A DNA stretch of 64,000 nucleotides from Isurus oxyrinchus (lineage: Eukaryota), in assembly GCA_026770705.1 (NCBI GenBank), contig JANJGN010001130.1, forward strand, positions 1 to 64,000. The letters are read 5' to 3'. The notes beneath the pieces are model-generated. The model worked only from the letters and a program-made list of their open reading frames with translations. It had not been told where the DNA came from and did not search any database. Made by a program: the position numbers and the translations under genes. How positions within the stretch are numbered: position 1 is the first letter of the stretch; each line of letters starts with the position of its first letter. Below are positions 14,526 to 57,645 of the stretch, one piece after another.

Positions 14526-14529
14526 ATTG

Positions 14530-18712: not shown

Positions 18713-18835
18713 CTGAAGAGTCTGCCTGAATGATGTGCTTTGTGGTGAAGGATTGATATCACACCTTTAACATTGTCAGGGTCTCTGAAAGTGCTTCACA
18801 GTCAATGTAAGTAACTGATCTTTATTTGTTTTTAG

Positions 18836-19117
18836 ATGCACCACAGAATCTCTCAATTACTTCTCTTGATATGATTAACGCTTCATCGATCAATATAATT
18901 GAGGGGAATTCTGCAGTGATAATCTGCTCTGTCGAGAGCTTCCCAGCTTCTAACCTGACGTGGCGACATCTTAATGTCCCAATGAACAGAACAAGTTCCA
19001 ACAATGAGCTGTGGTTGGTGATTCCTCACGTTACATCCAGGGACACTGGAGACTATCAGTGTGTGGCAGAGAATGAACATGGAGCAGTGGAGGGGTTCAT
19101 AACCATCACTGTGGAAC
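18836..19117 (+). CDS. Gene A C2-set Ig domain 2 exon
   Basis: tttag|..|gtgagt, 282 nt, phase 1-1; DAPQNLSI..EGNSAVIICSVESFPASNLTW..DTGDYQCVAENEHG. Confidence 0.95.
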
Positions 19118-19149
19118 GTGAGTTACACAGAATTGAACGTTCTCGTGTT

Positions 19150-20190
19150 ATTAGCTCAAGGGATGTGGGCATTGTTGACAAGACCAGAAATCATTGCCCA
19201 TCTGTAACTGCCCCTTGAGAAGGTGGTGGTGAGCTGCCTTCTTTAACCACTGCAGTCCATGTGGTGAAGGCGCACCCACAGTGCTGTTAGGGAGGGAGTT
19301 CCAGGATTTTGACCCAGCGACGGTGAAGGAACGGCCGATATAGTTCCAAGTCCCAGGGCAGACCACCACCTCAAGTTCACCTCCAAGTCAAAGCCCTCAC
19401 TGACTTGGAACTGTCTTGGTGGAAGAGGTTAAGTGTTTGGAAGGTGCTGTCGAAGGAGCCTTGGTGAGTTGCTGCAGCGCATCTTGTAGATGGTGCACAC
19501 ACTGCTGCCATTGTGTGCCAGTGGTGGAGGGTATGAATGTTTATGCTGGTGGATTGGCTGTCGATCAAACAAACAGCTCCTGGATGGTGTCGAGGTTCTT
19601 GAGTGTTGTTGGAGCTGCACTTATCCAGCCAAGTGGAGATTATTCCATCACACTCCTGACTTGTGCCTTGTCCGATGGTGGACAGGCTTTGGGGAGTCAG
19701 GAGGTGAGTTACTCACCGCAGAGTTCCCAGCCTCTGACCCGCATTTGTAGCCACATTATTTCCTGTTGCCGGGCTGTTGCCAGGGCCAATAGCCTTTGCT
19801 GTATCCAGTATCATCAGCTGATTCCTGATGTCACGTGGAGTCAATCGAATTGTCTGAAAGCTGACATCTGTGATGCTGGGACCCTCTGGAGGAGGCCGAG
19901 ATGGATCATCCACTCAGCACTTCTGGCTGAACATGGTTGCCAATGCTTCAGCCTTGTCATTTGCACTGATGTGCTGAGCTCCCCCATCATTAAGGATGGG
20001 GATATTTGTGGAACATCCTCCTCCTGTTAGATCTTTAATTGTCCACCACCATTCATGACTGGATGTGGCAGGACTGCAGAGCTTAGATCTGACCCGTTGG
20101 TTGTGGGATCGCTTTGCTCTGTCTATAGCATGTTGTTTCCGCTGTTTGGTGTGTATGTAGTCCTGTGTGTCACCTCAGCAGCTTGGCACC
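19150..20190 (-). mobile_element. Non-LTR retrotransposon (LINE) fragments, probably RTE-X-like; another copy at ~55560-55985
   Basis: Decayed RT-region peptides (IRLTPRDIRNQL..DTAKAIGP; SKSWNSLPNSTVG..KKAAHHHLLKG). Confidence 0.75.
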
Positions 20191-20384
20191 TCTGTTATAT
20201 GTGAATCCTCCTTATAGAAACCTGCATGTACATGGATATTATCAATAAATATTACATAGATAAATGTTATTTGTATAGACCTTTCATGCATAGACAATAT
20301 CACTTCACAAGTTCAGAATTACTACATGTACATAGGGAACCATTCTCAAACTGTACCGGAGTCATTCATTGGCTGATTTTACAG

Positions 20385-20481
20385 GGCGAGATTCCAATGA
20401 ATGGAAAGCAGGATTGCTTGGAGCTGGAATCTGTTTGAGTGTTGGACTGAGTGGATTCTTCATCTTCAAGTGTGTGAGAAA
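20385..20481 (+). CDS. Gene A transmembrane exon (RRDSNEWKAGLLGAGICLSVGLSGFFIFKCVRK)
   Basis: ttacag|..|gtaagt, 97 nt, phase 1-2; paralogous to 55317-55413; missed by the ORF track. Confidence 0.9.
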
Positions 20482-21179
20482 GTAAGTGTGAAGGTTTAAT
20501 TGGTTGTTTTCAAAAATGTTTTCTTCAAACTTCTCTCCTTATAGAAAGAACTTGCATTTCTATAACACCTTTCACAACCCAAAACCCTTCACAACCCCTG
20601 AAGAGCTTTGATGTTCACTCACTGTTTCACATCTCATCCAACACTCACTGTTTCACAACGCAGTCCTGTAACTGGCAGTGTTGACCTGGACCATAAAATA
20701 CCTTGTGACTTCCTGAGGATGTGAAAGGGGATATATAAATGAAGACATTTCTTTTGTTAGTGAATGCAATCTCTTTCCATTTTCAGTGTCTAATTCACTC
20801 TCTCTCTTACCTCCACTAATGCTCTCCTTCTCATTCTCTCTCTCTCTCATTCGCTCTCTCTCCAATCTCCACTAATGCTCTCCTTCTCATTCTCTCTCTC
20901 TCTCATTCACTCTCTCTTATCTCCACTAATGCTCTCCTTCTCATTCTTTCTCTCGTCCTCTTACACATTGTTCAGTATCTCACAATTTTAAGGAGCGCTG
21001 AGCAACGTCTGCTCCATCAGAAGATCCACCTCAACACCTGGAGCGAGCAGTGAATTGAAACTCGCTCAACGACTGTTCAGATTTACACAGGAATCACGAC
21101 ACAGAGTCAGGACACAAAGGGTTAACAGTTTGCTTACAACACAACACTAAGGCCTTACGTTTCAGTGAAAGGGTTTTCA

Positions 21180-21497
21180 CAATTGTTCCCCAATTCCTCA
21201 TTTTGTCTCACAGAGATACATCAACCCTTTCTCATTAAATACACAGAGGGAGCAGCACAGGAAGAGGTCATTCAGCCCAGTCAGAGCGTGTGGGCAGTTC
21301 CTCCCCAGGCGAGCAGTCGGACAGGTACTGGGTAAGTAACGGAACGATTGGTACTCACTTCCACCACCAACACCGTCCTTTGTTGATGTTGTGACTTTAT
21401 AAAGACAGATTCCCATGATTGATGCCTTTGAAAGATTTCTACTGATTATTGAGATCTGGGTGTGAGGCTCAGGTCTGTTGTACAGAACATCTTTCTG
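21180..21497 (+). promoter_or_regulatory. Orphan promoter/exon-1 copy inside gene A, with no leader exon after it
   Basis: Near-identical to 9560-9857; donor at 21332; homology stops at ~21497. Confidence 0.75.
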
Positions 21498-21842
21498 GGT
21501 AAATTATGCAGACAGGTTACACACAGTCTACGATTATATTCCCTCAGGTCTAGAAGATTAAGGAGTGATCTAATTGAGGGATTCAAAATGATTAAACACT
21601 CGAAAGGGTCGATAGAGAGAAGCTATTCCCTCGGGTGGGGGTGGGTGGTGGGGGTCGGGTGGAGTCCAGAACAAGGGGGCCGGAACTTCAGATTGGAGCC
21701 AGGCCATTCAGGGGTGATTTCAGGAAGCACTTCTTCACACAAAGGGGAGTGGAAATCTGGAACTCTCTCCTCAATAATCAAACCCAACACCGAATACACA
21801 TCATGTTGATTGTCACTCTGTCCATTTCCATCTCTATTACAG

Positions 21843-21947
21843 AAGAGAGGTGAGGGGAAAGCAGGAATCAAATCGAACCACCGTGTTGATGAATATCGAG
21901 ATCCTGTTTATGAAAACTGTGAGTGTGGTTGGGCTTTGAGGAATCAG
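21843..21947 (+). CDS. Gene A cytoplasmic exon (paralogue of the terminal exon; two candidate donors, after 21918 and after 21947)
   Basis: ctattacag| acceptor; the phase-0 frame reads KRGEGKAGIKSNHRVDEYRDPVYENCECGWALRNQ|gtgagt. Confidence 0.6.
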
Positions 21948-22079
21948 GTGAGTCACACACCACAGGATCCCCAGCCTCTCAGCTGCTCCAGTAGCCTGGT
22001 TATTGATGTGGCTGCTCCACTCCTGTATCTGCAATGTTTTATACAGTCACTCCCAAACCCAACCAAACTCACACCCAAC

Positions 22080-22578
22080 GCCGTTCAGAATCAATAATCA
22101 AACCCCGTTCAGTATCAATAATCAAACCCCGTTCAGAATCAATAATCAAACCCCGTTCAGAATCAATAATCAAACCCCGTTCAGTATCAATAATCAAACC
22201 CCGTTCAGTATCAATAATCAAACCCCGTTCAGAATCAATAATCAAAACCCATTCAGTTTCAATAATCAAACCCCGTTCAGTATCAATAATCAAACCCCTT
22301 TCAGAATCAATTATCAAACCCTGTTCAGTGTAAATAATCAAACCCCTTCCAGTATCAATAATCAAACCCCGTTCAGAATCAATTATCAAACCCCATTCAG
22401 AATCAATAATCAAACCCCGTTCAGAATCAATTATCAAAACCTGTTCAGAATCAATAATCAAACTCCGTTCAGAATCAATAATCAAACCCCATTCAGAATC
22501 AATAATCAAACTCCGTTCAGTATCAATAATCAAACCCCGTTCAGTATCAATAATCAAACCCTGTTCAGTATCAATAAT
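22080..22578 (+). repeat. 24-bp minisatellite (aatcaataatcaaaccccgttcag)
   Basis: About 21 tandem units, intronic. Confidence 0.97.
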
Positions 22579-22676
22579 TAATGTATCTATTGTGGGTGGA
22601 ATTTTCGATTTGGATCAATAATACTAAACACTGATCACTCTGATTGTCACTCTGATCATTTCTGTTTCTATTACAG

Positions 22677-22793
22677 AAGAAAGATGAGAAGGATCTGGAA
22701 ATGAAATCGAACCGCGGAGTCAATCCTGATACAGATGATGATCTTTACGCAAACTGTGAATTTGCTGAGGATTCTGTTTATGGGAATTTATAA
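22677..22793 (+). CDS. Gene A terminal cytoplasmic exon (KKDEKDLEMKSNRGVNPDTDDDLYANCEFAEDSVYGNL*)
   Basis: ttctattacag| acceptor, phase 0, two Tyr motifs, TAA 22791-22793; AATAAA 23567-23572. Confidence 0.8.
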   Translation, partial: KKDEKDLEMKSNRGVNPDTDDDLYANCEFAEDSVYGNL

Positions 22794-25656: not shown

Positions 25657-26099
25657 GTAAGTAACGGAACGATTGGAATTCACTTCCACCACCAACACCG
25701 TCCTTTGTTGATGTTGTGACTTTATAAAGACAGATTCCAATGATTGATGCCTTTGAAAGATTTCTACTGATTATTGAGATCTGGGTGTGGGGATCAAGTC
25801 TGTTGTACAGAACATCTTTCTAGCTCAAGGGATGAGGGAAGAGCAGGGACATGAGCTTTGGGGTGTCCTGAGCAGGTGAAAGGCGATATAGAAATGCAAG
25901 TCCTTTATTGTGTTACTTTCTTAAAGCCTTGTAACTCTCTGCAGAGCAACTATCATCCCACAGAGAATCAAATTAGTCTGTGAAGACATTGTCTAATAGT
26001 GGTTCTGATCTCTCGAGAGGTGTCGGACAAGAGGTGAGGTCTCGTTAACTCATTTCTCTTTCACAGCTTGAGAACGAATGAAATACCTGGGAGTGGACA

Positions 26100-26139
26100 A
26101 TGATCAGGAAATCTTACTTCCTCCTGTCACTTCTCCAAG
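26100..26139 (+). CDS. Extra signal-peptide exon (MIRKSYFLLSLLQ); orphan, or an alternative first coding exon of gene B
   Basis: Intact acceptor (cacag|26067), ATG and phase-1 donor; no V exon before the next promoter. Confidence 0.7.
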
Positions 26140-27719
26140 GTAATATCATTGTCAGCTCGGATAGATTTATGGCTAATCATCTTTGTAAAACATAATTCTT
26201 ATTGAGTGTGATTGGGAACAGATTCAGCAGTGAGCCAGTGTACAATCTCACACCAAGTCCCATTCACCCATCACCCCTGTGCTCACTGATATACACGGAC
26301 TCCCTGTCTGACAGCAGAATTGGAGGAGAGCAGAGGACTTTGAGGTTTGCATGGTTGGAGGAGAAAGTGATTGGAGAAGAGGAATGGAGGGAATGGAAAT
26401 TGAGGATGAGAGTCTTAAACCCGAGGCTCTGCTGGACTGGGAGCCAGTGCAGGTCAGCGAGTGGCAGAGGGTGTGAGGTGTTGAGTTGAGAAACAGTGAT
26501 AAATACTGTGGGATGAAGTCTATCCTGATGCTTGGACTCCGATAGCAAAGGAATGAAATTTGTATCTTTTGCTGATTTTAATCAGAATTTCCCATGAAGA
26601 CAACACAGCAGCTCCTAGAATAGACAGGCTGTTCAGTGTCACACTTCCTGTCCATTCTCACCTTGCTAGAAACTTCAATAAGGGAGCAAGATAACTGAAA
26701 GAGAGAAGGAAGGTAAAGCTGTCTGTGTGTAAAGGTGTCAATATTCAGTTTGCATATTTGTCTTTCTCTCGACACATGCAGAGCTCAGGCTAGAGGCACT
26801 TTGTTAGTGTGTTTCACAGTGTCTGCTGGAGTAGGGTCAGTGCTGAGCTTGGGGACAAGTCAGTCTACAATGCTGCATCGGAATCAACAATACAACAATA
26901 TGGGGTTTGGATCAGAAATAATCCCTTAGACAATGAGGATCCAAAGAGATTCCATAGACAATGAGGATCCAAAGAGATTCCTTAGACAATGAGGATCCAA
27001 AGAGATTCCTTAAACAATGAGGATCCAAAAATATTCCTTAGACAATGAGGATCCAAAGAGATTCCTCAGACAATGTGGATCCAAAGAGAATCCTTAGACA
27101 ATGAGGATCCAAAGAGATTCCTTAGACAATGAGGATCCAAAGAGATTCCTTAGACAATGAACATACAAAGTGCACCAATCAGATTGAATCAGATTAACCA
27201 ATCAGCTGTGTTGAGGAGCAGACAGGAATGTTAGGCTAATTAGTGATTCATGACGGTGATAATGGCGGGAGTTCTGAGGGCTCCTAATCCATTGTCCTGT
27301 CTTGTAAATCAGCACCTTAATACTGACCCTCCAACAGTGCAGCACTCCCTCAGTACTGATCCTCCAACATTGCAGCACTCCCTGATTAATGTCCCTCTGA
27401 CACTGCAGCACTCCCTCAGTACTGACCTTACAATAGTGCAACACTCGCTCAGTAATGACCATCCGACAGTGCAGCACTCCCTCAGTACTGACACTGGGGA
27501 GTTTCAGTCTACTCTGTGGGGCCGACGTCCCCTGAATCGAGTCTTGAACCCCACAACATTCTGACCCCCTGAATTTGGCTGTGAAACCCACTGACCCACA
27601 GGAGAAATTCCTGGTCAATGACTGTCCACCTGTGAGCAGAAATATCACCACAGGGTCAGGACACAAAGGGTTAACAGTTCACCAACATCTCAAAACATGA
27701 GCTGCTCTGTCACTTTGAT

Positions 27720-27862
27720 CCAACTTCCTCATTTTGACTCACAGAGACACATCCACCCTTTCTAATTAAACACACAGAGGGAGCAGCACAGGAAGAGGTC
27801 ATTCAGCCCAAGCAGAGCGTGTGGGCAGTTCCTCCCCAGGTGAGCAGTTGGACAGGTACTGG
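27720..27862 (+). promoter_or_regulatory. Gene B promoter and non-coding exon 1
   Basis: PU.1-type aacttcctcattt 27722-27734 abutting AP-1 TGACTCA 27735-27741; donor at 27863. Confidence 0.7.
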
Positions 27863-28312
27863 GTAAGTAACAGAACAATTGGAATTCACTTCCACCACCA
27901 ACACCATCCTTTGTTGATGTTGTGACTTTATAAAGACAGATTCCAATCATTGATGCCTTTGAAAGATTTCTACTGATTATTGAGATCAGGGTGTGAGGCT
28001 CAGGTCTGTTGTACAGAACATCTTTCTAGCTCAAAGGATGAGGGAAGTGCAGGGACATGAGCTTTGGGACATCCTGAGGTGGTGAAAGGTGCTATAGAAA
28101 TGCAAGTCCTTCATTGATTTATTTTTTTAAAGCCTTTTAACTCTCTGCGGAGCACCTATCATCCCACAGAGAACCAAATTAGTCTGTGAAGACATTGTCT
28201 AAAAGCAGTTCTGATCTCTTGAGAGCTGTCGGACAAGAGGTGAGGTCTCATTAACTCCTTTCTCTTTCACAGTTTAAGAGTCAGAAGCTAAAGGAATATC
28301 TGGGAGTGGACA

Positions 28313-28352
28313 ATGATCGGGAAATCTTACTTCCTCCTGTCACTTCTCCAAG
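28313..28352 (+). CDS. Gene B signal-peptide exon (MIGKSYFLLSLLQ)
   Basis: ATG 28313, CAAG|gtaat phase 1. Confidence 0.9.
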
Positions 28353-29399
28353 GTAATAACATCATCAGCTTGGACAGATTTATGGTGAATAGTCTTTGTA
28401 AAAGAACATTCTTATTGAGCTGTGATAGGGAACCGATTCAGCAGTGAGCCAGTGTACAAACTCACACCAAGTCCCATTCACCCATCACCCCTGTGCTCAC
28501 TGATATACACTGACTCCCTGTCTGACAGCAGAACTGCAGGACAGCAGAGACCTCAAAGGGTTTCAGGGCTGGAGGAGGTGACAGTGATAGGGAGTGGAGA
28601 GGGAGGATGGAGGGATAAGGAATCAATGAAGAGATTTTGAAAATTGAGTCATTGCTGGACTGGGAGCCAGTGTAGGTCAGCCAGTGACAGGGGAGCGATC
28701 GGCTGAATAGAGAATCAGGGATAAATCTGGGGGATGAAGTCTATCCTGATGCAAGCACTCCGATATCAATGCCCTGAAATTTTTCTCTCTTGCTGATTTT
28801 CATCAGAATTTCCCATGAAGACAACACAGCAGCTCCTAGAATAGACAGGCTGTTCAGTGTCACACTTCCTGTCCATTCTCACCTTGCTAGATACTTCAAT
28901 AAGGGAGCAAGATAACTGAAAGAGAGAAGGAAGGCAAAGCTGTCTGTGTGTAAAGGTGTCAAATATTCTGAGTTATCATGATTGTTTCTGATCTGCTGCA
29001 GAGTTTATATTTCATTGAAACTTATCACTTTGCAGCTCAGAGAGAGACCATTGACTCACTGCCTGAAAGGGCGGTGGAAGCAGATTCAACAGGAACTTTC
29101 AGAAGGGGAACTGGATAAATACTTGAAGGGGACATTTTGCAGGGTTGTGGAGGAGAGAGTAGAGGTTAGAGTGGGACTTATTGGACAGATCTATCAAAGG
29201 CCCAGCACAGGCTCGATGGGCCAAATGGCTTCCATCAGTTCCGGATCATTCTACAATCCGATAAATTAAGTCTCTTATCAGTAACTCTTCAGGCTCCTGC
29301 TGCAGGAATGGCTCTTTCAGAAGAGCAGGGAACAAGCGGTTTCTCATATCATGTTCATATTTATTGACAATTACATAAGTGTATGGAACTGTTGAATAT

Positions 29400-31500
29400 T
29401 TGAGTCTCTAAAGTGTGGATTTAACCTTCTGGTACACCCAGATCTTGTGCTGGTTACCTTGTCTGGAGGTGTCTTTAACTGCTCACAGTGATCTGTGGGA
29501 TTGTCACCCTTGAATGTTGTTCCTGATTTCATGTGGAATCTTCTCCTCGATGGAATAGGAGCGGGAATGGATCTGATTTATCCTCGGTTCCACCTCACCG
29601 CTGTGCCCTTGTGTGTTTGACTCCATAGGCCCTTGGTTCTGAACAAATCCTTGTCACCTCGGCTGGTGGTCATGAACCTTCTGTGGGATCCTGGATGTGA
29701 ACTTGTCCCAACTGTAAACTTGGCAACTCTGCACCTCCATTTTTATCATGAACATTCCTTATCTTCTCTTGTAGTTTTAAAAGTTGCCCTCTGGTTTCTG
29801 AGAGAGTAGAATGGGTAAGAGTAGCGAAATTGGTCACTACTGGCCCACCAAACATGATCTCTGTCAGTGATGGAATAAGGTGAGGTGATGGTGTAGTGGT
29901 ATTGTTGCTGGATGAGTAATTCAGAGACCCAGGGTAATGTCCTGAGAATATGGGTTCAAATCCTGTCATAATAGATGATGGAATTTGAATTTAATAAAAA
30001 TATGAAATTCAAAGTTTAGTGATGACCACAAAACCATTGTTGGAAATCCCACCTGGTTCACCAGTGCCCTTTAGGGAACAAAATTGTCTGGCCGCCATGT
30101 GACTCCAGACTCCACGTCAATGTGGTTAACTCTTACATTAGGGATGGGTAATAAATCCTGGCCTGGCCAGTGACTCCCACATCCCATGAATGAATTTAAC
30201 AAAGTTGCAGTTGTAGGTGTCGATCTCAGATGTAACATTGCAATGTGTGGATCTTGCTTGGTCTGTCTACATTTGAGAATTAGGGATTTCACTGTGTGAA
30301 TCATTCATTCAGCTAGGCTGTTAGATCTGGGGTAATGAGGAGAAGAAGTACTGTGATTGATATTCCAGATTATCTGTAATCATGTCCCTAGTTTCACCAC
30401 ATAAACTGAAAATAGTGCTTAGAGTGTGTGCACCAGTTGTGCTTAGTGTGTTGTGCTATTTTTGAATAACGGGATATCTGGTAAAGCTGTCGACGATGAC
30501 GATGATGTCAGTGACATGGACATGAAAGGATTCAGATGTGATTTTGGACTAAGAATGGGCAGGAATTTCCTGTGGAATCAGTGGTTCTTTGTGTTGTCTT
30601 GGCTCATCCTCTTGACAAGCCTCGTACTTCCCTACAACAACTTCAAGGTCATTGTTCATACCCGGCCAGTGACTGTATCTCTTGTGAGTCTCCTTGTCTG
30701 ATCTGTGCCCATGTGTGAGGGATGAAGTTGTTGAAGAATATAGGATCACAGATGCCCTGCCTGCCATTAAAAATGACTCCCTGGGAGATGCCTCGCTTAT
30801 CCCGATGAGGTCAAGTTGAATCAGGCCACCCTTTCAATGATATTTCCACAGTTCCTGTAGAATTTTTCACTGTTCCCTCTTGTAGCTGCTGTCATTTCTG
30901 TTGTGCTAAATATACTGGATCAATTGACAGACTTGCATTCTCCTGCAGCTGTAATGTTGCAGCTCCCTTGAAACTGCCAATACTGTTGAAACTTTCTGCA
31001 TATTTCAATGTTATGGCATGAACTGAGGTGATGGGGTAGTTTCTGAGGTTGACCCATGTGAGATCTGACAGATTCCTGGATTGTCACTAGTGTGAGGTCA
31101 CCGCATGCCGGTAGACTTGTAATTGCTCAGCCTTTAGCCTCCACAATGTAGAACATCGGTGACACCCAGGAGGATTGATTGTACTTGCACCCCAGGACTA
31201 TGGATTCTGCACATGGAGTTGGTGAAGTGTTGTACACAGCAGTAGGTTTCCCATTGCCTTCCATGTCCTTGGATACATGTCTTTGAAAATTTGCTGGTTT
31301 GGGATGGGGGAGGGGAATGTTGGCACTTGCCCCTGTGTCAATCTTGGCCAATAAAGGGGAGGTAGCAACTTTCTCAGGGCAGATAATTGGAATCTTGGCC
31401 AATAGTGCGGGTGATGTGACAGCATCTGTTCTCCGTGAGATTGATGGTGTAAAAGGTGTGAAATTGTTCTAAAATTGCAAAATACGTTGAGCACAAGTGC
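29400..31500 (-). mobile_element. Decayed Gypsy/Ty3 LTR retrotransposon pol (protease, integrase)
   Basis: AKIDTGASANI (aspartic protease); HWPGMNNDLEVVVGKYEACQ (integrase Zn region); interrupted by a SINE. Confidence 0.8.
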
Positions 31501-31699
31501 TGCACAAACTCTAGGCCGGGGTTTTGCGGCCCAGTCATGGTGGGACCTGCCGTGGGAGAATGGGACAGACATAAATCCATTGGCTTTCGGCCGGACCGGA
31601 CAATCCTGGCAGTGGGTGGGGCCAGAAAATCCCACCCCTATTGGACATTTTCAGTTTATTTGATGTGACCAGAGAGATCATTAAGGACAACAATCCCTG

Positions 31700-32085
31700 C
31701 CTCTGTAACCTGCCCCAGTCACTACAACCCTCCCGACCTCTGCAAACTCCTCCAGATTCTACACTCTCCCAATCTCTCTTAACTTTTCCAGCCTGTACAA
31801 CCCTCCCTATTTCTGTAACTTCCTCCTGCCCCTAAAAGCTTCCCTATCACTGTAGCCTGCTCCAGTCCCGACGACGTTCCCTACCTCTGTAACCTGCCCC
31901 AGTCACTACAACCTTCCTTCTCTCTGTAACCTCCTCCAGCCCCTCCAACCCTCTGAGGTCTCTGTGCTCATCCAATTCCAGCCTCTTGACCATCCCCCGG
32001 TCCCATCACTGCAATATCGGCGGCCGTGCCTTCAGCTGCCTGGGGCCCGAGCTCTGTAATACCCTCCCTCAACCACTGTCCGTCC

Positions 32086-32131
<46 letters not shown>

Positions 32132-32310
32132 ATCTCTCTCTCTCTCACTATCCATTTCATCCCTCTTTGAAGATTCTCCATAACACCGACCTCTTCTGGC
32201 CAGCTGTCGCTAATATCTCCACATGTGTCTGGGTGACATACTTTGTTTTATGACGCTCCTGTGTAGCACTTTGGGGTGATTTGTCATGTTAAAGTTGTTG
32301 TGTAAATATA
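31700..32310 (+). mobile_element. L2-type LINE 3' tail remnant
   Basis: GGRAFSCLGPELCNTLP; ctctgtaacctcctccagcccc units as in 48390-48690. Confidence 0.65.
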
Positions 32311-32864
32311 AGTTGTTGCCCTTTGACCCGCGACCCCAGCTCGAGTATTATTTTTGAGGGAATGTACAACCTCCTTAGATTTCTGACCAAAATGTCATTT
32401 GATTATTTTTATTGAGCGAATGCCAAGCCCCGATACCGAGCGAGAGCCTCCTCATTTGCTGAGTTTAAGGTGATGAGTCAGCCCCTTAGTCCGTAGAGGG
32501 GATTCTCCTCGGTAATGTGCAGCCTTGTTTGTGTCTCTCCACAAGCGCATGAGGGGTTTGTACAGAGGCTGCAGCGCTGGAGGGGGTCTGCACAGGGGTC
32601 CTGGCCTGTCCTGAGCCGGTTTTAGCAAGGACCACTCTGGCCATGGCAGCTGAAAGCCAGCCATTGGACAGACGGGGCCTGTCACAAGGAGCCTGTTAGT
32701 CACTCCCCCCCCCGTGTCTCCTGTGCTCGGATCCAGACCATGTTGGCTGGTGGATCTGGCTCAGGAAGGGTCCTCCCCATGGGACCCCCAGATGGAAGGT
32801 GGGTCGAGCAGGTCATTCACTTGCATGTTTATTCTGCAGCTTTAATATTTTAAGAAGGTAAGAA

Positions 32865-33600
32865 TGTAGGATCATAAGAAATAGGGACAGGAGCAGGCCA
32901 TTCGGCCCCTCCAGCCTGCTCTCACTGATCTGGTTGTGGCCTTAACTCCATTTTCCTGCCTGTCCCCCAAACCCTTGACTCCCTTGTCGATCAAAAACCT
33001 GCCTCACTCAGCCTTGAGCCTATTCAATGGCCCAACCTCCACTGCTCTCTGGGGAAGAGAATTCCACAGGCTAGCGCCCCTCTGAAAGAGGAAATTCCTC
33101 CTCATCTCAGTCTTAAATGGGGGAGCCCTCATTCCGAAACTGTGCTCCCTGGTTCTAGATTCCCCCACGAGGGGGAAACATCCTCCCAGCATCCACCCTG
33201 TCAAGCCCCCTCGGAATCGGATATGTTTCAATAAGGTCACCCCTCATTCTTCTAAACTCCAATGGATACAGGCCCAACCTGCTCAACATTTCCTCACAGG
33301 ACAAACCCTTTAATCCCAGGAATCAGCCCAGTGAAGCTTCTCTGAACTGCCTGTACACAATGTTCGTGTTACAATCTCACTAACGCCCTGTGCAGCTGTT
33401 GCAAGACTTCCCTCCTCTTAAACTCCATCTCTTCGCAATAAAGGCCAACATTCCACTTGCCTTCCTCATTCCGTGCTGTTCCTGAATGCTGACTTTCTGT
33501 GATTCATGTACAAGGACACCCAGATCCCTCTGTACTGCATTCTGCAGCCTGTCTCCAGTTAAATAATATTCTGTTTTTCTATTCTTCCTGCCAAAATAAT
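32865..33600 (-). mobile_element. CR1 LINE 3' fragment
   Basis: QRDLGVLVHESQKVS..KASGMLAFI; FPLVGESRTR..LWNSLPQRAVE. Confidence 0.9.
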
Positions 33601-33715
33601 TTGTTGCCATTCTCCTCAGTATTGACCATCCCCCCAATTCAGCCACATCTGCAAATATCGGGTTCAGTGGATCCATAAAACATCCAGAGTTAAATATTGA
33701 GATTTCTCTCCCCAG

Positions 33716-34081
33716 CTGAACCCTCACAAGAGTGGAAAGGTGACACTCCACGAGAGTTGACATCTCAGGAAGGTTCGTGTGTACAGATTCCATGTCATTA
33801 CAGTTATCCATTGTGTCTGGAAAACCAACCACGAGGTGGAGTCTGGTTTAATAATGAGGAATGGAGAACAACGTCTATAGCCTTTCACTCCAAGGATCAC
33901 AGTCACGAGTTACCACGGTTCCACCATCGGACCCGGCTGTCTGGAGACCTGAAAGATGGCGACTGTTCCCTGATTATAAACAACATCACATGGGAAGATG
34001 CAGGACCTTATTTTTTCAGAATAGAATTTGACAACAGTAATAGTTACAGCTACTATCCTGCAACCCAGCTTCACATTTCTG
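33716..34081 (+). CDS. Gene B Siglec V-set exon
   Basis: 366 nt, phase 1-1, open; YFFRIE with Arg at 34018-34020. Confidence 0.93.
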
Positions 34082-34809
34082 GTAAGTGCTGTGTTATAAT
34101 TACTCAACAATTCACATTCAACACTCAATGGGAAATAACGCAAACTGTGACGTTTACATATTAACACAAAACACAGCTTATTATAACACACTGTCTGATT
34201 CTCAATATCCTGGTGATAGCTTCCAGTTCACTCCTAAAGCAACCTCTAATAATCACTTTAATATCAATGATTAAATATATTGACTGTGTCCATCAATGTT
34301 ATCAGGTTATCCACTCGCGTCGATCTCTCTAATCCTGTCTCGAAGTCTGACATATCGACAAAAGAAAGATTCACATTTCTATGGAGCCTTTCACCACCTC
34401 AATATGTACCAAGTCACTTCACAGCCAATGAGCTGATTCCTGAATTGTAGTTACTGTTGTAATGTGAGAAACACAGCAGCCAATTTGCGCACAGCAATCT
34501 CCTTCCAATTGCAAAGTACTAAATGGCCCAGATCGCTGAGTGAATGATGAGGTAGTGCACTCCAAACTCTGGTCTGCTCCTCCACCCTCACCCACTATTA
34601 TCAGTTCAAGTGTCTCGGAGTGAACGTGTATTAAGCTGCGAGACAGAAACACCAAAGTCTCAAAGCAGGAAATTCTCTCCTGATCGTTGTAACCTCTCAG
34701 TTCTGATATCATCCTTGTAAAAGTGCTTTCTCTTGTGGGACTGTGGTTTCTATTTGAACTGATGCTTCACGTTATATTTCTCTAAAAGGATCCATTCTCT
34801 GTCTGTTAG

Positions 34810-35106
34810 AATTCACAGATAAACCCACGATATTCCCTGCTGAAATTATTGCAGGAAAGCGTGTGGATGTAAGCTGCCCCTTCAACACAACGTGCAATGG
34901 AACAGCAGCACCTGTCTTAACCTGGGACACTCCCACTGACGTACCTGGATCAGTCTCAAACACTGTAACTCAGCATGATGTCACTCTGTCCTATACTTCT
35001 GTTCTGACCCTGATCCCATCACTCAAACACCACGGACACACTCTCAGCTGCAGAGTGAGATATCCATCTGTTTCATCGGAGCAGACCCTCGTACTAACTG
35101 TGCAAG
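34810..35106 (+). CDS. Gene B C2-set domain 1 exon
   Basis: 297 nt, phase 1-1, nearly identical to 13024-13320. Confidence 0.93.
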
Positions 35107-35439
35107 GTAAGTTGAGATATCCTTCATTCTACATCAGCACTCCCTCAGCGCTGACCCTCTGACAGTGCAGCCCGTTCTCAGTGTCCACATTCTCAGACCT
35201 CTCAATTAGCTTCACAGTCCATAGAAGTTAATTGATCTTTATTTGATTGTTGCTGAATGAAGAGACAAGCTGTTTAAACTTTAAATCTCACACACATTAT
35301 TTTCCATGGCAACACATCCACCTATCAGAGACCACTTGCCAACCAATCAGCACTCTCTTCCCTTTAAATATAAATTGTTGTTCACTCTCTGTTGGTAAAC
35401 ATGCGATCTGTCTTGTTGAGTCCTGCCCTGATATCTGGA

Positions 35440-35582
35440 TATCACAATGAACAGAACAAGTTCCAACAATGAGCTGTGGTTGGTGATTCCTCACGTTACA
35501 TCCAGGGACACTGGAGACTATCAGTGTTTGGCAGAGAATGAACATGGAGCAGTGGAGGGATTCATAACCATCACTGTGGAAT
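35440..35582 (+). pseudogene. Gene B C2-set domain 2 remnant (acceptor and 5' half replaced by foreign sequence)
   Basis: MNRTSSNNELWLVIPHVTSRDTGDYQCLAENEHG..TVE|gtgagt; intronic homology to gene A stops at ~35245. Confidence 0.85.
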
Positions 35583-37265
35583 GTGAGTGTACACAGATTT
35601 CATCATCTGTCTCAGATTGAAACATGACACAAACACACACAAATATACAGACCTAAATAGACACCTGCAGATACACAATCCCTCGTATATGAGCACACAC
35701 AAAGACACAAACAAACACACTAGCACAATACTCCCCAGTGGGTTACCTGACCTCCCTCAGTGCTGCACTGGAGAGTTGACCTGGATTCTGAGATTTTTGT
35801 TCCCTTTCATGTTTATGGAAGAATATGGAAATTGCAAAGTCTATTACAGACACTCAGATGCATAGAGACACTCACAGATACTCTCTGTCTCTCCAACTCT
35901 CTATCCTCCTTTAAGAAGCTTCCTGAAACCTAACCCTTTGACCAGTCAATTGTCCCAACTCCTCCTTACATGAATCTGTGTGAAATTTTGTTTGAGTATC
36001 TGAGAGTAAGAGAGAGGTGGAGAGGTTTAGGAAGGGAATCCCTGTTGGTGAAAAGCTTACATCATGTTCTCACTTTTCCACTGCCCGTATTTCACCTGAT
36101 GTCCAATGTCCTTGTTTATAATAGGGATTGCCTATGTAAACGTCACGCTGTAGTTACACTGTACCACCAGTGGTGCACAGTAGAACTTAACCCTTGCATC
36201 TCTCAGCTTTTCAAGCAAATCCACTTCCCAGTTTGCCTCACAAGCTGTGAGTTCATCGGAATTAAATTATTTCTAAAACGGTAGATTTGATGTCATTTTA
36301 TTGAAAACTTCCTCAGTGCCTCCCTGAAGGGTTTACACTCTCTGGGAAGCAGGAATAGGCTGGATGTTGGGGAGTTCATCTTTTCCCAGAGAGCAGTGAT
36401 CCTCGGGAATGTGCTGTCTGTGGGTGTGGTGGTTGCTGTTGCTCTGTTGCCTTCAAGAGGGATCTGGAGTGGTTACTGACTGGGGGAGAGATCATGGAAG
36501 TGGAGAATGATACAGCACAGGAGGAAGCCATTCAGCCCATTGTGCCTGTGCCAGGTCTTTCAATGTTCTATCCCATCAGATCCACTAACCACCACTCCAC
36601 TTTGCCCCCATCTTCCTCCTTCAAGTGTTTATCCAATTCCCCTTTTGAAAGTTCCTATTGAATCTGCTTCCACCGCCCTTTCAGGCAGCACCTTCCAGAT
36701 CACAACAACTCGCTCTGTCAAAACAAATTCTCCTCATCTCCCCCTCCAGTTCGTCAATCTGTGTCCCTCTGGTTACTGACCCTCCTGCCCCGTAAATACA
36801 TCGATACTGTTCACCTCAACCACTCCCAGTGGGAGCGAGTTCCACATTCTCCCCTCTCTCTGGGTAAAGATTGGAACTGTTTATTAAGCGGGGGGTGTAA
36901 GTCCATGGGGGATTCCATCTCGATCCTGCCCGATTCGCACACACGTCCGAGATGGATTTCCATCCTTCACAAAACGTTTCCAGAATTTTCTACAGCACAA
37001 TCCTGTACACAGCGATGGAGAGAAACATTGGACAGGGAGTCCAACAGCACAATGATCCATTCTCACCAATGTTCCACGCTAAGGGGAAAGTTCCGATTGT
37101 CCACTCTTAGAGTGTTTACAGTGAAAACATTCATTCCACATTGAATCCCAGTGGATGGGTCAATATTACAGCAAATGTTGCAGTGATATGAAGCTTGATT
37201 GCTCAGCCAGAGTGAGAGATTGAAAGCGGAGAGTCAGTGATGATTTCTTTCTGTGTGTTCTCTAG

Positions 37266-37405
37266 ACAGTGGAGGAGAGATTCTGCACGTGATCCTGATC
37301 CTGGGAATACGAGTTGTGATATTCCTTGTGGCTGTGGCTATCACTATCGCTGGAGTCTGTGTCTGGGAGGAACAAACAGTGAAAGGAAGTCGACAGACTG
37401 TTTGA
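37266..37405 (+). CDS. Gene B terminal exon: TM with Arg and a short tail (SGGEILHVILILGIRVVIFLVAVAITIAGVCVWEEQTVKGSRQTV*)
   Basis: ttctttctgtgtgttctctag| acceptor; the phase-1 frame gives a ~25-aa hydrophobic segment with CGA (Arg) at 37310-37312; TGA 37403-37405; AATAAA 38389-38394. Confidence 0.85.
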
Positions 37406-38030: not shown

Positions 38031-38751
38031 AAATCTTATTCTTTCCATCAGCACAAACAGCAATTTCCAAGCGGACTCCCATCAGCAGACAGAGTGCAAT
38101 GAAACATCGGCATGCCTGCTTCTTAATGTACGGAGAGAAACCTGGAACGAGAGATTCTCCTTCTTCTCCTCAGCAAGCTGAAACTTTTCCTTATACCTGG
38201 TGCTCCCCAGTCCTGCTGTGTGGACACATCATAACCACGGCATTGTCTGGCTGTGTGCAGCCAACATGGTCGAATAGGAATGAACAGAAATGCGACATTG
38301 CTAAACTCTGTTCTCTGATTGGAATGTGCTTTCTGAATACTGCACCTTTTTAATGCTGCGATAGATTGTAGGAGGCATTTGGGTTATGAATAAAATTACA
38401 TTGATTAACTCAAGTGATTAAAATGCTCAGCCTGTTCTGTAGATATTTATAGATTAAAATTCTTATTTTGCAGCCAAATTCTTGGCTCAAAGACATTACT
38501 TCATGTTGTCACATTTTCTCCATCATATGAATTCCATTGCCCATCTTTATAATAGAAATTTCCAATGTAAACATGTCACATTGTAGTTGCACACTCCTGC
38601 CAGTGGTGGTGCCATTCCAAAGCTGTCTTGCTGCACTGACACAGTGAGAATTATTCTTGACTTGTACATGATGTTGTTGTTACACAGACATCAGGCGGAA
38701 TCTTGGGCAGTGCCTAGAATGCACTTAGGACATTGCGGACCACAATCAGAA

Positions 38752-39730
38752 CTGACAGTGCAGCGTTTCCTCAGTGCTGACCCTCCGTCAGTGCAGCGCT
38801 CCCTCATTACTGTCCCTCTGACAGTGCTGCACAACCTCATTATTGACCCTTTTCAAGTGCAGCACCCCGTCAGCACTAACCTTCTGACAGTGCAGCATTC
38901 CCTCATGGCTGACAATCTGACAGTGCAGCACTCCCTCAGTACTCACCCACCCACAGTACAGCACTCCCTCAGTACTGATTCTCTGACACTGTATCCCTCC
39001 CTCACTACTGACCTTCCGACAGTTCAGCACTCCCGTGGTACAGACTCTCTGACAGTGCAGCACTCCCTCAGTACTCAACCTCCCACAGTGCAGCACTCTA
39101 TCAGTACTCCCACTGTGCTGCGCAAGTTGTTTCAATCAAGATTGGTGCCCAAAGAGGGAGGTTTCATTGCTACATCATTGAAATCAGTGAAAATTATTTT
39201 TAGGCTTACGGGAACAAGACTTAGTTCCTCAAATCCTTTCTTTTGCAATAACACACAGTACAAGAATCTCTGTTTAAATAAATTCCAGTTAAACTTTGCC
39301 ATGAAAGGATATCTGCTCTTACTCCGCTCTACCTCAGTATTAACCATCCCACAGTCCGGCACCCCCTCAATACTGAGCCTCCGACTGTGTGGAACTCACT
39401 CAGTACAGACACACTGACTGTTCAGCACTCCCACATTACTGACCATCTGATAGTGCAGCACTCCCTCATTACTGACCCTCTGACAGTGCAGCACTCCCAC
39501 ATTACTGACCCTCTGACAGTGCAGCACTCCCTCACTACAGTCCCTCCTACATTGCAGCACTCCCTCATTACTGAACCTCTGACAATGCAGCACTCCCACA
39601 TTGCTCACCCTCTGATATTGCAGCACCCCCACATTACTGACCCTCTGCTAGTGCAGCACTCCCTCAGTACTGACCCTCCCACAGTGCAGCACTCCCACAG
39701 TACTGTCCCACTGACAGTGCAGCACTCTCT
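38752..39730 (+). repeat. Degenerate 33-bp minisatellite arrays
   Basis: Tandem units, interrupted at ~39120-39330. Confidence 0.9.
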
Positions 39731-39954
39731 CCGTAATGATAACAGGGATCGTTGAAATGAATCATAAGGCCAGAGACCTGTATTGGGAACTCTTATCGCC
39801 TGAGTTTCAGCCTCCGAGGTGAGGGGGAGGAGTCTAATCCCATGGAGCCAATGGAGAAGCTTCATGACTATTGATGCCCATATATGAGCTGACAGATCAT
39901 CAGATGGTAAACGTTTTGCTGAGAGCACAAAACATCCTCGATCTTCTCACTGGT

Positions 39955-40099: not shown

Positions 40100-40549
40100 G
40101 TAAGTAACGGAACGATTGGAATTCACTTCCATGACCAACACCGTCCTTTGTTGATGTTGTGACTTTATAAAGACAGATTCCAATGATTCATGCATTTGAA
40201 AGATTTCTACTGATTATTGAGATCAGGGTGTGAGGCTCAAGTCTGTTGTACAGAACATCTTTCTAGCTCAAGGGATGAGGGAATTGCAGAGACATGAGCT
40301 TTGGGACGTCTTGAGGTGGTGAAAGGTGCAATAGAAATGCAAATCCTTCAATGTTTTTCTTTCTTAAAGCCTTGTAACTCTCTGCAGAGTACCTATCATC
40401 CCACAGAGAATTAAATTAGTCTGTCAAGACATTGTCCAAAAGCAGTTCTGATCTCTTGAGAGCTGTCGGACAAGAGGTGAGGTCTCATTAACTCCTTTCT
40501 CTTTCAGAGTTTGAGAGTCAGAAGCTAATGAAATATCTGGGAGTGGACA

Positions 40550-40589
40550 ATGATCGGGAAATCTTACTTCCTCCTGTCACTTCTCCAAG
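40550..40589 (+). CDS. Gene C signal-peptide exon (MIGKSYFLLSLLQ)
   Basis: tttcag|40508, ATG 40550, phase-1 donor. Confidence 0.9.
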
Positions 40590-46744: not shown

Positions 46745-47119
46745 TTGGACTATCACAAGTGTGGAAAGTCAACACTCCACGAGAGGTGACAGCGCAGGAA
46801 GGTTCGTGTGTACAGATTCCATGTAATTACAGTTATCCATCATATTTAGTAGCGAGATCAGCAGTCGGAATCTGGTATATGAGAAGGAATTTGGAAACAT
46901 GGAATGAACGGTCTATAGCCTTTCACTCCAAGAATCACAATCACAAGTTAACACGGTTCCACCATCGGACCCGGCTGTCTGGAGACCTGAAAGATGGTGA
47001 CTGTTCCCTGATTATAAACAATGTCAGACGGGAAGATGCAGGATATTATTTATTCAGAACAGAATTTGACAGCAGGAATAGATACAACGACCGTCCTGAA
47101 ACCCAGCTTCACGTTTCTG
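46745..47119 (+). CDS. Gene C V-set exon 1 (intact, most divergent V)
   Basis: gtag|..|gtaagt, 375 nt, phase 1-1; YYLFRTE with Arg at 47056-47058. Confidence 0.9.
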
Positions 47120-47384
47120 GTAAGTGCTGTGTTATAATTACTCAACAATTCACATCCAACACTCAATGGGAAATAATAGTGTTTGATTTGCTTGTTTTTT
47201 GGCCGTGTTAACCAGCGTCACTATTTTTAATGATTTGTCTATTTCTGCTCCCAGATCCATGAGCTTATTGTGTGTGATTGAATCCACATCATAGCTGTAA
47301 CGTAAACCGAGCTGAGGGGTGATGACACCTCCCCCCTGAGTGAAGTGTCTCCTCCCCACTACACCTTCCACCCCTCACACTGTC

Positions 47385-48690
47385 CGTGTAAACCCCCGTC
47401 CCATCTCCAGCCTCTCTATCCCCTCCAAAGTCCTTGAACGTGTTTCCATCTCCCAAATCCTTTCCCATCTTTCCCGGAACTCCATGTTTGAATCCCTCCA
47501 ATCAGGTTCCCACCCCAGCCACTGTGCTGAAACAGCTCTTATCAAGGTCACAAATGGCATCCTGTGTGACTGTGACAAAGGTCAACTTTCCCTCCTCGTC
47601 CTTCTCGATCTGTCTGCAGCCTTTGACACGCTCGACCACACCATCCTCCTCCAACACCTCTCCACTGTCGTCCAGCTGGGTGGGACTGCTCTCCCCTGGC
47701 TCCATTCTTATCCATCTCATCGTAGCCAGAGAATCACTTGCAATGGCTTTGCAGCATCATTTGAACAGTGTTAGTTTTCACCTGTCCACTGAGGATCCCC
47801 AGCTCTACCTCACCACCACCTCTCTCGACTCCTCCACTGCTGCTAAATTATCAGGCTGCTTATCCAACATCCAGTACTGGATGGGCAGAAATTCCCTCCA
47901 ATGAAATATTGGAAAGACTGAAGCCATTGTCTTCATTCCCCGCTCCAAACTCTGTTCCCTCGCTACCAACTCCATTCCTCTCCCTGGCAGCTCTCTGAGA
48001 TTGAAGCCAATCTGTTCACAGCTTTGTTGTCCCATTTGATCCTGAGATGAGCTTCCGGCCTCATATCTGCGCCCTCACTAACACCGTCTATTTCCACCTC
48101 CGTAACATCGCACGACTTCAACCTGTCTCAGCTCATCTGCTGCTGAAACCCTCATCCACGCCTTCATTACCTCCAGACTCGACTGTTCCAACACACGCTC
48201 TACACTCCATAAACTTGAGGCTATCCAAAACTGCTGACCACGTCCTTACTCAAACCAAGTCCCGTTCCCTTATCACCCGCTCTGCTCGATGACCGAGACT
48301 GGCTCCTGGTCAAGCAAAGTCTCAATGTCACAATTATTGAATATTTTTCCTCCCCATTACAGTAATCCTCACCTCTTGCTTCAGCCATGGCAACCCTCCC
48401 TATCTCAGGAGCCTCCTCCAGCCCCTACAACCCTCCCTATCTCTGTAACCTCCTCCAGCCCCTACAATCCTCTGAGATCTCTGCACTCCTCTGATTCCGG
48501 TCTCTTGAGCTACCCCCGATTCCCATCGTTGTGCCATTGGAAGCCATGCCTTCTGCTGCCTGGGGCCCCGAGCTCTGGAATTTTATCTCTAAACCTCTCC
48601 CCACCTCTCCCTCTCTCTCAATCTCTCTCTCTCTCACTCTCTCTTTCTCACTCTCTCCCTCTCTCTCTCTCGCTATCCCTTTTATCCCTA
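47385..48690 (+). mobile_element. L2-clade LINE RT remnant
   Basis: PISSLSIPSKVLERV..QSG..ETALIKVTN..LLVLLDLSAAFDTLDH. Confidence 0.85.
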
Positions 48691-48714
48691 TTTTAATATT
48701 CTTCATAACACAAC

Positions 48715-49450
48715 AACATAAGAACATTAGAAATAGGAACAGGAGCAGGCCATTCGGCCCCTCGAGCCTGCTCTCGCTGATCTGGTTGTGGCCTTAACTC
48801 CATTTTCCTGCCTGTCCCACAAACCCTTGACTCCCTTGTCGATCAAAAACCTGCCTCACTCAGCCTTGAGTCTAATCAATGGCCCAGCCTCCACTGCTCT
48901 CTGGGGAAGAGAATTCCACAGGCTAGCGCCCCTCTGAGAGAGGAAATTCCTCCTCATCTCAGTCTTAAATGGGAGAGCCCTCATTCCGAAACTGTGCTCC
49001 CTGGTTCTAGATTCCCCCACGAGGGGGAAACATCCTCCCAGCATCCACCCTGTCAAGCCCCCTCGGAATCGGATATGTTTCAATAAGGTCACCCCTCATT
49101 CTTCTAAACTCCAATGGATACAGGCCCAACCTGCTCAACATTTCCTCACAGGACAAACCCTTTAATCCCAGGAATCAGCCCAGTGAAGCTTCTCTGAACT
49201 GCCTGTACACAATGATCCTGTTACAATCTCACTAACGCCCTGTGCAGCTGTTGCAAGACTTCCCTCCTTTTATACTCCATCCCTTTGCAATAAAGGCCAA
49301 CATTCCACTTGCCTTCCTCATTCCGTGCTGTTCCTGAATGCTGACTTTCTGTGATTCATGTACAAGGACACCCAGATCCCTCTGTACTGCATTCTGCAGC
49401 CTGTCTCCAGTTAAATAATATCCTGTTTTTCTATTCTTCCTGCCAAAATA
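48715..49450 (-). mobile_element. CR1 fragment (same insertion as 32865-33600, duplicated)
   Basis: Near-identical sequence and the same junction upstream of a V exon. Confidence 0.9.
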
Positions 49451-49567
49451 ATTTGTTGCCATTCTCCTCAGTATTAACCATCCTCCAAATTCAGCCTCAT
49501 CTGTAAATATCGGGTTCAGTGGATCCACAAACCATTCAGAGATAAATATTGAGATTTCTCTCCCCAG

Positions 49568-49935
49568 TTGGACTGTCACAAGAGTGGAAAGGTGACACTC
49601 CACGAGAGGTGACAGCGCAGGAAGGTTCGTGTGTACAGATTCCATGTCATTACAGTTATCCATCGTGTCTGGAAAACCAACCGCGAGGTGGAGTCTGGTT
49701 TAATAATGAGAAACAGATTCCCTGGGCTCCCATTGCCTTTCACTCCAAGGATCACAGTCACCAGTTACCACGGTTCCGCCATCGGACCCGGCTGTCTGGA
49801 GACCTGAAAGATGGCGACTGTTCCCTGATTATAAACAACATCTGACGGGAAATGCAGGACCTTATTTTTTCAGAATAGAATTTGACAATGGTCCGAGCCA
49901 TAACTATTACCCTGTAACCCAGCTTCACGTTTCTG
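49568..49935 (+). pseudogene. Gene C V-set exon 2, disabled
   Basis: AGA>TGA at 49843-49845 plus a 1-nt deletion a few bases later (368 nt versus 369); splice sites intact. Confidence 0.9.
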
Positions 49936-50748: not shown

Positions 50749-51045
50749 ATTTCACAGATAAACCCACGATATTCCCTGCTGAAATTATTGCAGGAAAGCG
50801 TGTGGATGTAAGCTGCACCTTCAACACAACGTGCAATGGAACAGCAGCACCTGTCTTAACCTGGGACACTCCCACTGACGTACCTGGATCAGTCTCAAAC
50901 ACTGTAACTCAGCATGATGTCACTCTGACCTATACTTCTGTTCTGACCCTGATCCCATCACTCAAACACCACGGACAGACTCTCAGCTGCAGAGTGAGAT
51001 ATCCATCTGTTTCATCGGAGCGGACCCTCGTACTAACTGTGCAAG
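50749..51045 (+). CDS. Gene C C2-set domain 1 exon
   Basis: 297 nt, phase 1-1, open. Confidence 0.93.
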
Positions 51046-51242: not shown

Positions 51243-51309
51243 GACTATCAGTGTGTGGCAGAGAATGAACATGGAGCAGTGGAGGGGTTCATAACCATCA
51301 CTGTGGAAT
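51243..51309 (+). pseudogene. Gene C C2-set domain 2 remnant (3' 67 nt only)
   Basis: DYQCVAENEHGAVEGFITITVE|gtgagt; 5' part and native acceptor deleted. Confidence 0.85.
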
Positions 51310-51631
51310 GTGAGTGTGGAGATACATTTGTTTGTTTGTTGTCTCCGTGGTCTCCGTGGAGCCATTGGGATCGTGTTGTTTTTAATCCAGTTTTCTTCAA
51401 TCCTCGCTCAGTCCACGTTATCCACACACCCAATTTTTCCTCTCCCTTTCTGTTTTTGCTCTCAGTTTCTCCTTCAATGGTTGTCAGGACAAGGCTGTCA
51501 GGTCTTCGTTTCCAATCTCCGTACTTGATGAACTTTCTCTCTCTAACTGTCCTGAACAACCCTTTTAATTGCTGAACATCTCCTCTTGATCTAAGTCACT
51601 CATTGGTCTTTCTGTCCATCCAGCTGATTCT

Positions 51632-53558: not shown

Positions 53559-53852
53559 ATAAGCCGGAGATTTCCCAGCAGTCGGAGTGCACTTGGAGGT
53601 CAGAGGGGGTCACCTGCGTCTGTGTGGCCAACTCCAACCCACCCGGAGACCTCACCTGGCACCTGCCCAGTGCCAACATCAGTGGTAACCAAACACACGG
53701 AGGTTTTGTGTCGTGGCAGGTCAGAGATGGGCATCTGGTGACTGGTTCCCTCACCCTGATGAGACCCCAGGATGAGGGGGGAGTGATTGCATCCTGCTCG
53801 GTTCAAAACCCACACGGGGAAGACATGTTCAAGGAGTATCTGTGGGTCAAAG
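53559..53852 (+). CDS. Gene C membrane-proximal C2-set exon (MAG-Ig5/Siglec-5-like)
   Basis: ctcctcag|..|gtgaga, 294 nt, phase 1-1; KPEISQQSECTWRSEGVTCVCVANSNPP..ASCSVQNPHG. Confidence 0.92.
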
Positions 53853-55316: not shown

Positions 55317-55413
55317 GTAGAGACTCCAGTAAATGGACAGTAGAATTGTTCACGGCTGGGATCATGTTGAGTGTTTCCCTGGCTGGAATCTTCATCTTCA
55401 TCTGTGTGAGAAA
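55317..55413 (+). CDS. Gene C transmembrane exon (GRDSSKWTVELFTAGIMLSVSLAGIFIFICVRK)
   Basis: ttacag|..|gtaagt, 97 nt, phase 1-2. Confidence 0.92.
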
Positions 55414-56100: not shown

Positions 56101-56182
56101 GAGAAAGACAGCGACGGAGGAGAGAGTTTCAGGGACCAGTGACATTGCATTGACCCCCAGTTCACTCTCTGTGAAGCACCAG
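56101..56182 (+). CDS. Gene C cytoplasmic exon 1 (KRKTATEERVSGTSDIALTPSSLSVKHQ)
   Basis: ttgcag|..|gtacag, 82 nt, phase 2-0; bridges the TM and the last exon in frame. Confidence 0.85.
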
Positions 56183-57396: not shown

Positions 57397-57645
57397 GGTA
57401 AACAGAACGTGCTGATTACTGAGCCCCGGAACACAACCAGAGACACAACTAGCGAGGGGGAGACCCCAGTTCCCCGGGGTCTCTCTGAAGGTGCAGTGGG
57501 AGGTGATGCTGGACATGGGAACCCTGACAATCCCGCCGAGCTTCTCTACGCCAATCCCCAAGTCTTCAGGGTGCCCAGTGGTGATGGGTCTGTCCACAGG
57601 GAAGAGGAGACGGAATACGCACAGATCAGATTCAAGCGAAACTGA
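57397..57645 (+). CDS. Gene C terminal exon with degenerate ITIM (ELLYANP) and ITSM (TEYAQI)
   Basis: ctgtag| phase 0; TEYAQIRFKRN*; AATAAA 58227-58232. Confidence 0.92.
   Translation, partial: GKQNVLITEPRNTTRDTTSEGETPVPRGLSEGAVGGDAGHGNPDNPAELLYANPQVFRVPSGDGSVHREEETEYAQIRFKRN

Follow-up and report, generated by a model that had tools for sequence, protein, structure and literature searches.

In Siglecs, a spare cysteine of the V-set domain is bonded to a cysteine of the C2-set domain that comes next, as in the C37-C165 bridge of MAG (PMC5150538). Fifteen Siglecs are counted in human (PMC7226832). Mammalian Siglec-12 contains two V-set domains and has common null alleles in humans, and human SIGLEC11 has been converted by a non-functional allele of SIGLEC16 (PMC6288428). 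As for fish, PMC7226832 describes their genomes as being without CD33-related Siglecs; it covers teleosts and never mentions sharks. The literature that we searched, mostly outside subscription journals and without supplements, and including PMC8455134 and PMC13358205, holds no description of a Siglec expansion in sharks or of a disulfide between two V domains, PMC8455134 mentioning Siglecs once, in passing.

We analyzed the first 64,000 nucleotides of a contig (C1130, accession JANJGN010001130.1) from the 4.98 Gb assembly of the shark Isurus oxyrinchus (G000). This stretch is called the window, and positions are those of the window unless a contig is named. Gene C, on its forward strand, is organized as leader-V1-V2-C-C-TM-tail (Table 1). 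The original prediction had described one leader followed by two phase 1-1 V exons, and its coordinates and frame logic are correct: no leader was found between V1 and V2 of gene C, and all V exons are phase 1-1. All exons of gene C other than V2 are intact, and the 73-nt remnant of a further C2 exon is likely skipped in splicing. We consider it probable that gene C is a copy of a shark Siglec-like receptor gene that lost its function recently, the two V-set exons being predicted to be spliced into one chain.

Table 1. Features of gene C in the window.
Feature	Position	Strand	Remarks
Leader exon	40509-40589	+	ATG at 40550; phase-1 donor after 40589
V1, first-position V-set exon, intact	46745-47119	+	Frame open over 375 nt; AG/GT borders
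Tract closest to the lesion-bearing fragment without leader	48700-49935	+	6 differences in 1236 nt from G000:C52:4141611
V2, later-position V-set exon, broken	49568-49935	+	368 nt, against 369 in paralogs; AG/GT
Two V2 lesions	49843-49851	+	TGA at 49843-49845; one G missing after 49851
First C2-set exon (C1), intact	50749-51045	+	Includes the C2-side cysteine of the Siglec V-C2 disulfide
73-nt remnant of a further C2 exon	51243-51315	+	Common to all same-layout siblings; absent from the white-shark model P0014
Membrane-proximal Ig exon, intact	53559-53852	+	
Transmembrane exon, intact	55317-55413	+	One private Gly-to-Glu change at its start
First cytoplasmic exon, intact	56101-56182	+	
Last cytoplasmic exon	57397-57645	+	Tyrosine motifs LLYANP and TEYAQI, and the stop

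The V-set exons are followed by C2-set ones, Pfam V-set/Ig_CD22 being assigned to V1 and V2 and C2-set_2 to C1, and the best PDB matches are sialoadhesin, MAG, Siglec-10, Siglec-5 and CD33. A homologue search found the best protein relatives in lamniform sharks. In a tree of 85 elasmobranch V domains built by a quick method, where 46 of the 82 branches are open and a few rows are mislabelled as first V, V1 groups with the first V domains of white and basking sharks (support 98). The AlphaFold model of a white-shark relative (P0013) displays three Ig domains (pLDDT 73, pTM 0.52) with a V1-V2 linker of low confidence, and a fold search with P0013 returned CD33 and MAG as top matches. Judged by the usual ITIM and ITSM consensus, the tail behind the TM exon contains an ITSM-like motif, TEYAQI, while the ITIM position is occupied by LLYANP, which is not canonical, many relatives having LLYANI there. 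The essential F-strand arginine of Siglecs is kept in V1, whose YLFRTEF aligns to YNFRFEI of sialoadhesin; its counterpart in V2 lies behind the stop. V1 has also kept the inter-domain cysteine (GSC). This residue and the TTC cysteine of C1 align to positions 20 and 148 of the MAG chain, which, with an offset of 17 set by hand, correspond to the C37 and C165 of the MAG inter-domain disulfide (PMC5150538). Gene C is therefore Siglec-like in its sequence features, except for a canonical ITIM, and its sialic acid binding is putative.

We then compared gene C with its paralogs, using the first 20 of the 150 V1 relatives listed, those of the window set aside. Each of the 20 has one to three later V exons, counted up to C1 or to where the stretch ends. 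No leader stands in between, and all 31 later V exons are intact. More generally, the next exon after a V of the V1 class is another V in 24 of 26 cases, the remaining two lying outside the sequence covered. The whole layout of gene C is intact in three siblings, and the white-shark model P0014 has the same V-V-C-C-TM-tail layout. A twin on G000:C52, colinear with positions 31796-53023 of the window and 98.4% identical over 21 kb, may be a paralog or an allele, and its V2 is intact. The private changes of gene C amount to eight non-synonymous for one synonymous, against 17:8, 15:8 and 12:2 in the siblings, which is no clear excess.

The V2 exon of gene C had been predicted to carry a stop and a frameshift between intact splice sites, and the TGA at 49843, the one-nucleotide deletion and the AG/GT borders are all confirmed. 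In most paralogs the position of the TGA reads AGA. As both lesions fall within 9 nt, one could wonder whether a local assembly or sequencing error has disfigured an ordinary intact double-V gene. The deletion after 49851 was indeed found in no contig of eight public runs (DNA runs X1, X2, X3 and X5, probable RNA runs X11, X17, X18 and X19), and the contigs spanning this position in X1, X2, X18 and X19 all have the G. However, this does not show the deletion to be absent, because rare variants are lost from contigs and the position collects sequence from hundreds of paralogs. An exact motif search located the stop together with the deletion at two places in the assembly, the window and C52:4141877, and the stop alone at six more, giving eight TGA copies in three V contexts. 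The second double-lesion copy is without leader or V1, has different TM and downstream exons and is 98.5% alike over 2.7 kb; it also has in common with the window other rare variants around the lesions. An identical pair of lesions at a clearly different locus makes the error very improbable, and the V2 lesions look real. As eight copies have the stop and two the pair, the stop is likely older than the deletion.

The comparison with this second, leaderless copy also bears on how V2 was broken. Gene C differs from it by 6 positions in the 1236 nt of the V2 tract and by 27 in the 1110 nt downstream (p = 6e-5), and from the twin by 16 and 20 positions in the same two tracts. Such a mosaic, near the fragment over V2 and not downstream of it, fits gene conversion or unequal crossover, one of which likely produced the tract. 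We propose that the dead V2 tract was probably moved in this way, by exchange with a leaderless fragment. It had been suggested that V2 could act as a conversion donor. The part of this suggestion that stands is the probable involvement of conversion; the direction does not follow from it, V2 being equally a candidate recipient of a dead tract.

What becomes of the transcript depends on whether V2 is still spliced in. Its splice contexts (25 nt at the acceptor and 12 nt at the donor) are identical to those of the intact twin, which is unremarkable for a lesion younger than about 2% divergence. Because these sites are unchanged, the dead V2 would still be included by default. The first stop would then be codon 231, which precedes the V2 donor by 90 nt and is followed by five introns, and a premature stop more than 50-55 nt upstream of a later junction is a signal for NMD. 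A V2-including transcript would accordingly be expected to disappear by NMD or to yield a stub of 230 residues. Skipping V2 restores a single open frame of 477 aa. Both the NMD geometry and the in-frame skip are as originally predicted.

The further proposal that V2 is a poison exon, regulated so as to tune the expression of gene C via NMD, could draw on this geometry and on the recurrence of the same TGA in eight copies and three V contexts. We find it hardly credible, as the stop is not conserved: the twin V2 and the 31 later V exons of the closest paralogs (best 20 of 150) are intact, and the eight TGA copies stand against at least 255 V exons of the cysteine-bearing type. Furthermore, five of the six stop-only copies belong to genes whose C1 is also frameshifted, and the other double-lesion copy has neither leader nor V1. 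Nor does breakage affect later V exons more often than first ones, with 3 of 66 (seven motif-bearing exons set aside) against 2 of 50 (p = 1) in a sample of 1.09 Mb, whose 64 blocks were selected for their resemblance to V1, for V positions listed on C52 or for the lesion motif and are thus not random. The cluster has many broken V or C1 exons and, in one that evolves so fast, the broken V2 is in itself ordinary turnover. Among genes with at least three V exons, both broken exons seen are second ones, numbers too small to mean much.

On the other hand, gene C could still work as a single-V receptor if V2 were skipped, without regulation, in some transcripts, which would encode the V1-C-C-TM-tail protein of 477 aa, and if NMD disposed of the V2-including ones. 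Such skipping preserves the frame, all other exons are intact without clear decay, and V1 has kept the arginine, replaced by Gly at the same position of the twin V1. At C1130:109028 and C1130:161933, a first-class V stands directly before C1, and the joining of such a V straight to C1 in two genes of the same contig makes the V2-skipped protein structurally plausible. In three other genes (C385:534916, C52:2296258 and C52:1578695, one of them chosen via the lesion motif), the second V is dead and the C1 that comes next is intact. We nevertheless judge this rescue unlikely. With splice sites the same as in the intact twin, nothing visible favours the skip; in the V1 class, every next exon observed is another V; and later V exons show no excess of breakage. 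The RNA joints point the same way in that the skip, 47119^50749, is not among the 15 listed out of 240 from the four probable RNA runs. The V1-V2 junction is not among these 15 either, the only relevant one being V2-to-C1 (49935^50749; X11, X18 and X19), which could come from any paralog in runs taken as RNA by guess. When short transcript-derived proteins that span a V-V junction were looked for, three models were obtained, all with a single V.

Our preferred reading, in which the mRNA of intact siblings would run leader-V1-V2-C-C-TM-tail, comes from a cysteine whose presence depends on the position of the V domain. An extra cysteine in the BC loop, present in V2 of gene C (YPSC) and absent from V1, is carried by 70 of 72 later V exons. 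In multi-V genes it occurs in 1 of 49 first V exons, and among single V exons that follow a leader it occurs in 3 of 26. These counts come from related copies in a non-random sample, so that p-values calculated on them overstate independence. The pattern spans sharks and a ray: in models from other species, 26 of the 33 later V domains have the residue, as against 1 of 59 first ones, 12 domains of unclear position being set aside. It lies seven residues after the B-strand cysteine in later V domains and six after it in C1. If one V simply followed another, the inter-domain cysteine would be left free; later V exons supply a partner for it. We thus propose that the extra BC-loop cysteine of V2 bonds the spare B-strand cysteine of V1, copying the ordinary V-C2 disulfide of Siglecs, and that such V-V bonding would build a stiff stack of sialic-acid-binding domains. 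Compared with MAG and sialoadhesin, to which the shark V-C2 module is alike in its aligned cysteines and arginine motif, the shark family builds the partner cysteine into a V-set domain too, which would extend the link to V-V pairs.

The predicted presence of V1 and V2 in one chain argues against another idea put forward for this locus, namely that the tandem V exons are alternatively used cassettes, mutually exclusive as in Dscam, so that a dead one merely removes an option. All V exons are phase 1-1, they form arrays of up to ten, and the V-V junction was not seen directly among the RNA joints listed, all of which such cassettes would accommodate. Yet a cysteine tied to later positions is meaningful only if the same chain has a V in front of it, and NCBI models from eight genera join two to seven V domains in series. 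In addition, the gene with ten V exons has several identical or near-identical later ones, which would add valency and not choice. We therefore give exclusive cassettes very little chance.

That ten-V gene (G000:C52:2271665-2301019, minus strand; L138-L141) has the same downstream layout as gene C. Its second V is frameshifted and its first V is without the intra-sheet cysteine, the other eight V exons and all downstream exons being intact.

Tandem V exons are frequent in this family. The 87 V runs of the sample, those cut by a stretch edge being possibly longer than counted, comprise 37 single, 40 double, 3 triple, 6 quadruple and one of ten, so that genes carry from one to ten V exons and two V exons behind one leader are common here. 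Exact 20-mers match at least 534 V-exon donors and at least 480 leader donors in the assembly, and a tail motif is found 101 times; these are lower bounds on matches and may count both haplotypes. Siglec families are listed in supplementary file 9 of a whale-shark paper, which might bear on copy number. Among 72 longer homologues from NCBI or UniRef, models with two to seven tandem V domains occur in eight genera of sharks and rays (Carcharodon, Cetorhinus, Scyliorhinus, Mustelus, Hemiscyllium, Rhincodon, Pristiophorus and Mobula), their V-V joins being those of automatic NCBI models. Labelled 'Siglec-12-like', 'CD33-like' or 'pIgR-like', these models belong to the same family and have the same extra cysteine; they are known by database labels only, no paper describing them having been found in the literature searched. 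The suggestion of an ancestral double-V layout comparable to Siglec-12 is supported by the recurrence of this layout across the cluster and in the models of the eight genera.

A parallel can be drawn with the CD33-related Siglec cluster, and the gene C family appears to work like it, with Siglec-12-type tandem V domains and null copies. Both are tandem clusters with birth and death of genes, tracts in common with dead copies and tails bearing tyrosine motifs, although the shark copies exceed the human fifteen (PMC7226832) by at least an order of magnitude. The likeness to Siglec-12 lies in the two V-set domains before the C2 part, in the null copies made by stop and frameshift, and in the loss of the essential arginine from the first V, which is frequent in the shark family too (20 of 48). 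It is a likeness by layout, the NCBI names being automatic, and the shark family differs by its one to ten V domains, its hundreds of copies and its position-specific cysteine.

The arginine follows position as well: it is kept in 69 of 70 later V exons and 20 of 21 single ones, against 28 of 48 first V exons of multi-V genes. Since the outermost V is hypervariable and often devoid of the arginine that binds sialic acid, it may have moved to non-sialic or pathogen ligands. We find it rather probable that sharks and rays possess an undescribed and very large family of inhibitory-type Siglec-like receptors, with hundreds of copies here, in which valency and reach are tuned by stacking one to ten V domains, each added V bringing a BC-loop cysteine for a V-V disulfide, and in which the outermost V has perhaps turned to other ligands while the inner domains still read self. 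This multi-V family with its position-specific cysteine is a larger result than the broken exon. It would place in cartilaginous fish a CD33-like explosion of Siglec-type receptors, none being described in the literature searched. From it would also follow a simple structural rule, by which multivalent lectin stacks are built when a V domain imitates a C2 partner, and a testable division of labour between the outer variable V and the inner arginine-bearing V domains.

The other genes of the window illustrate further sources of variation. Genes A (10085-22790), B (26066-37402) and D (62011 onward) have three different TM/tail modules (a YxxV-type tail, a short tail-less TM and a TEYAQI-type tail), so that shuffling combines ectodomains with several kinds of signalling end. 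Gene B, which has two leader exons, contains only one V; this V bears the later-position cysteine and lies 5.4 kb behind the leader, and the gene may have lost a first V. Gene D contains seven intact tandem C2 exons (G000:C1130:68015-74464; L077, L127), so that exon duplication makes the length of the stalk vary too. Among single V exons, a class defined by a WLKG loop (L087, L091, L096, L101, L106 and L115) is broken in every copy seen and is a dead lineage still being duplicated. 5'-truncated C2 remnants of fixed length, 168 nt at 35430-35597 and 73 nt in gene C, mark whole subfamilies across the cluster. Finally, repeat arrays with units of about 33 bp lie at 13500-18700, 27300-27500 and 38750-39740, in introns and intergenic sequence, where they give rise to long spurious ORFs.
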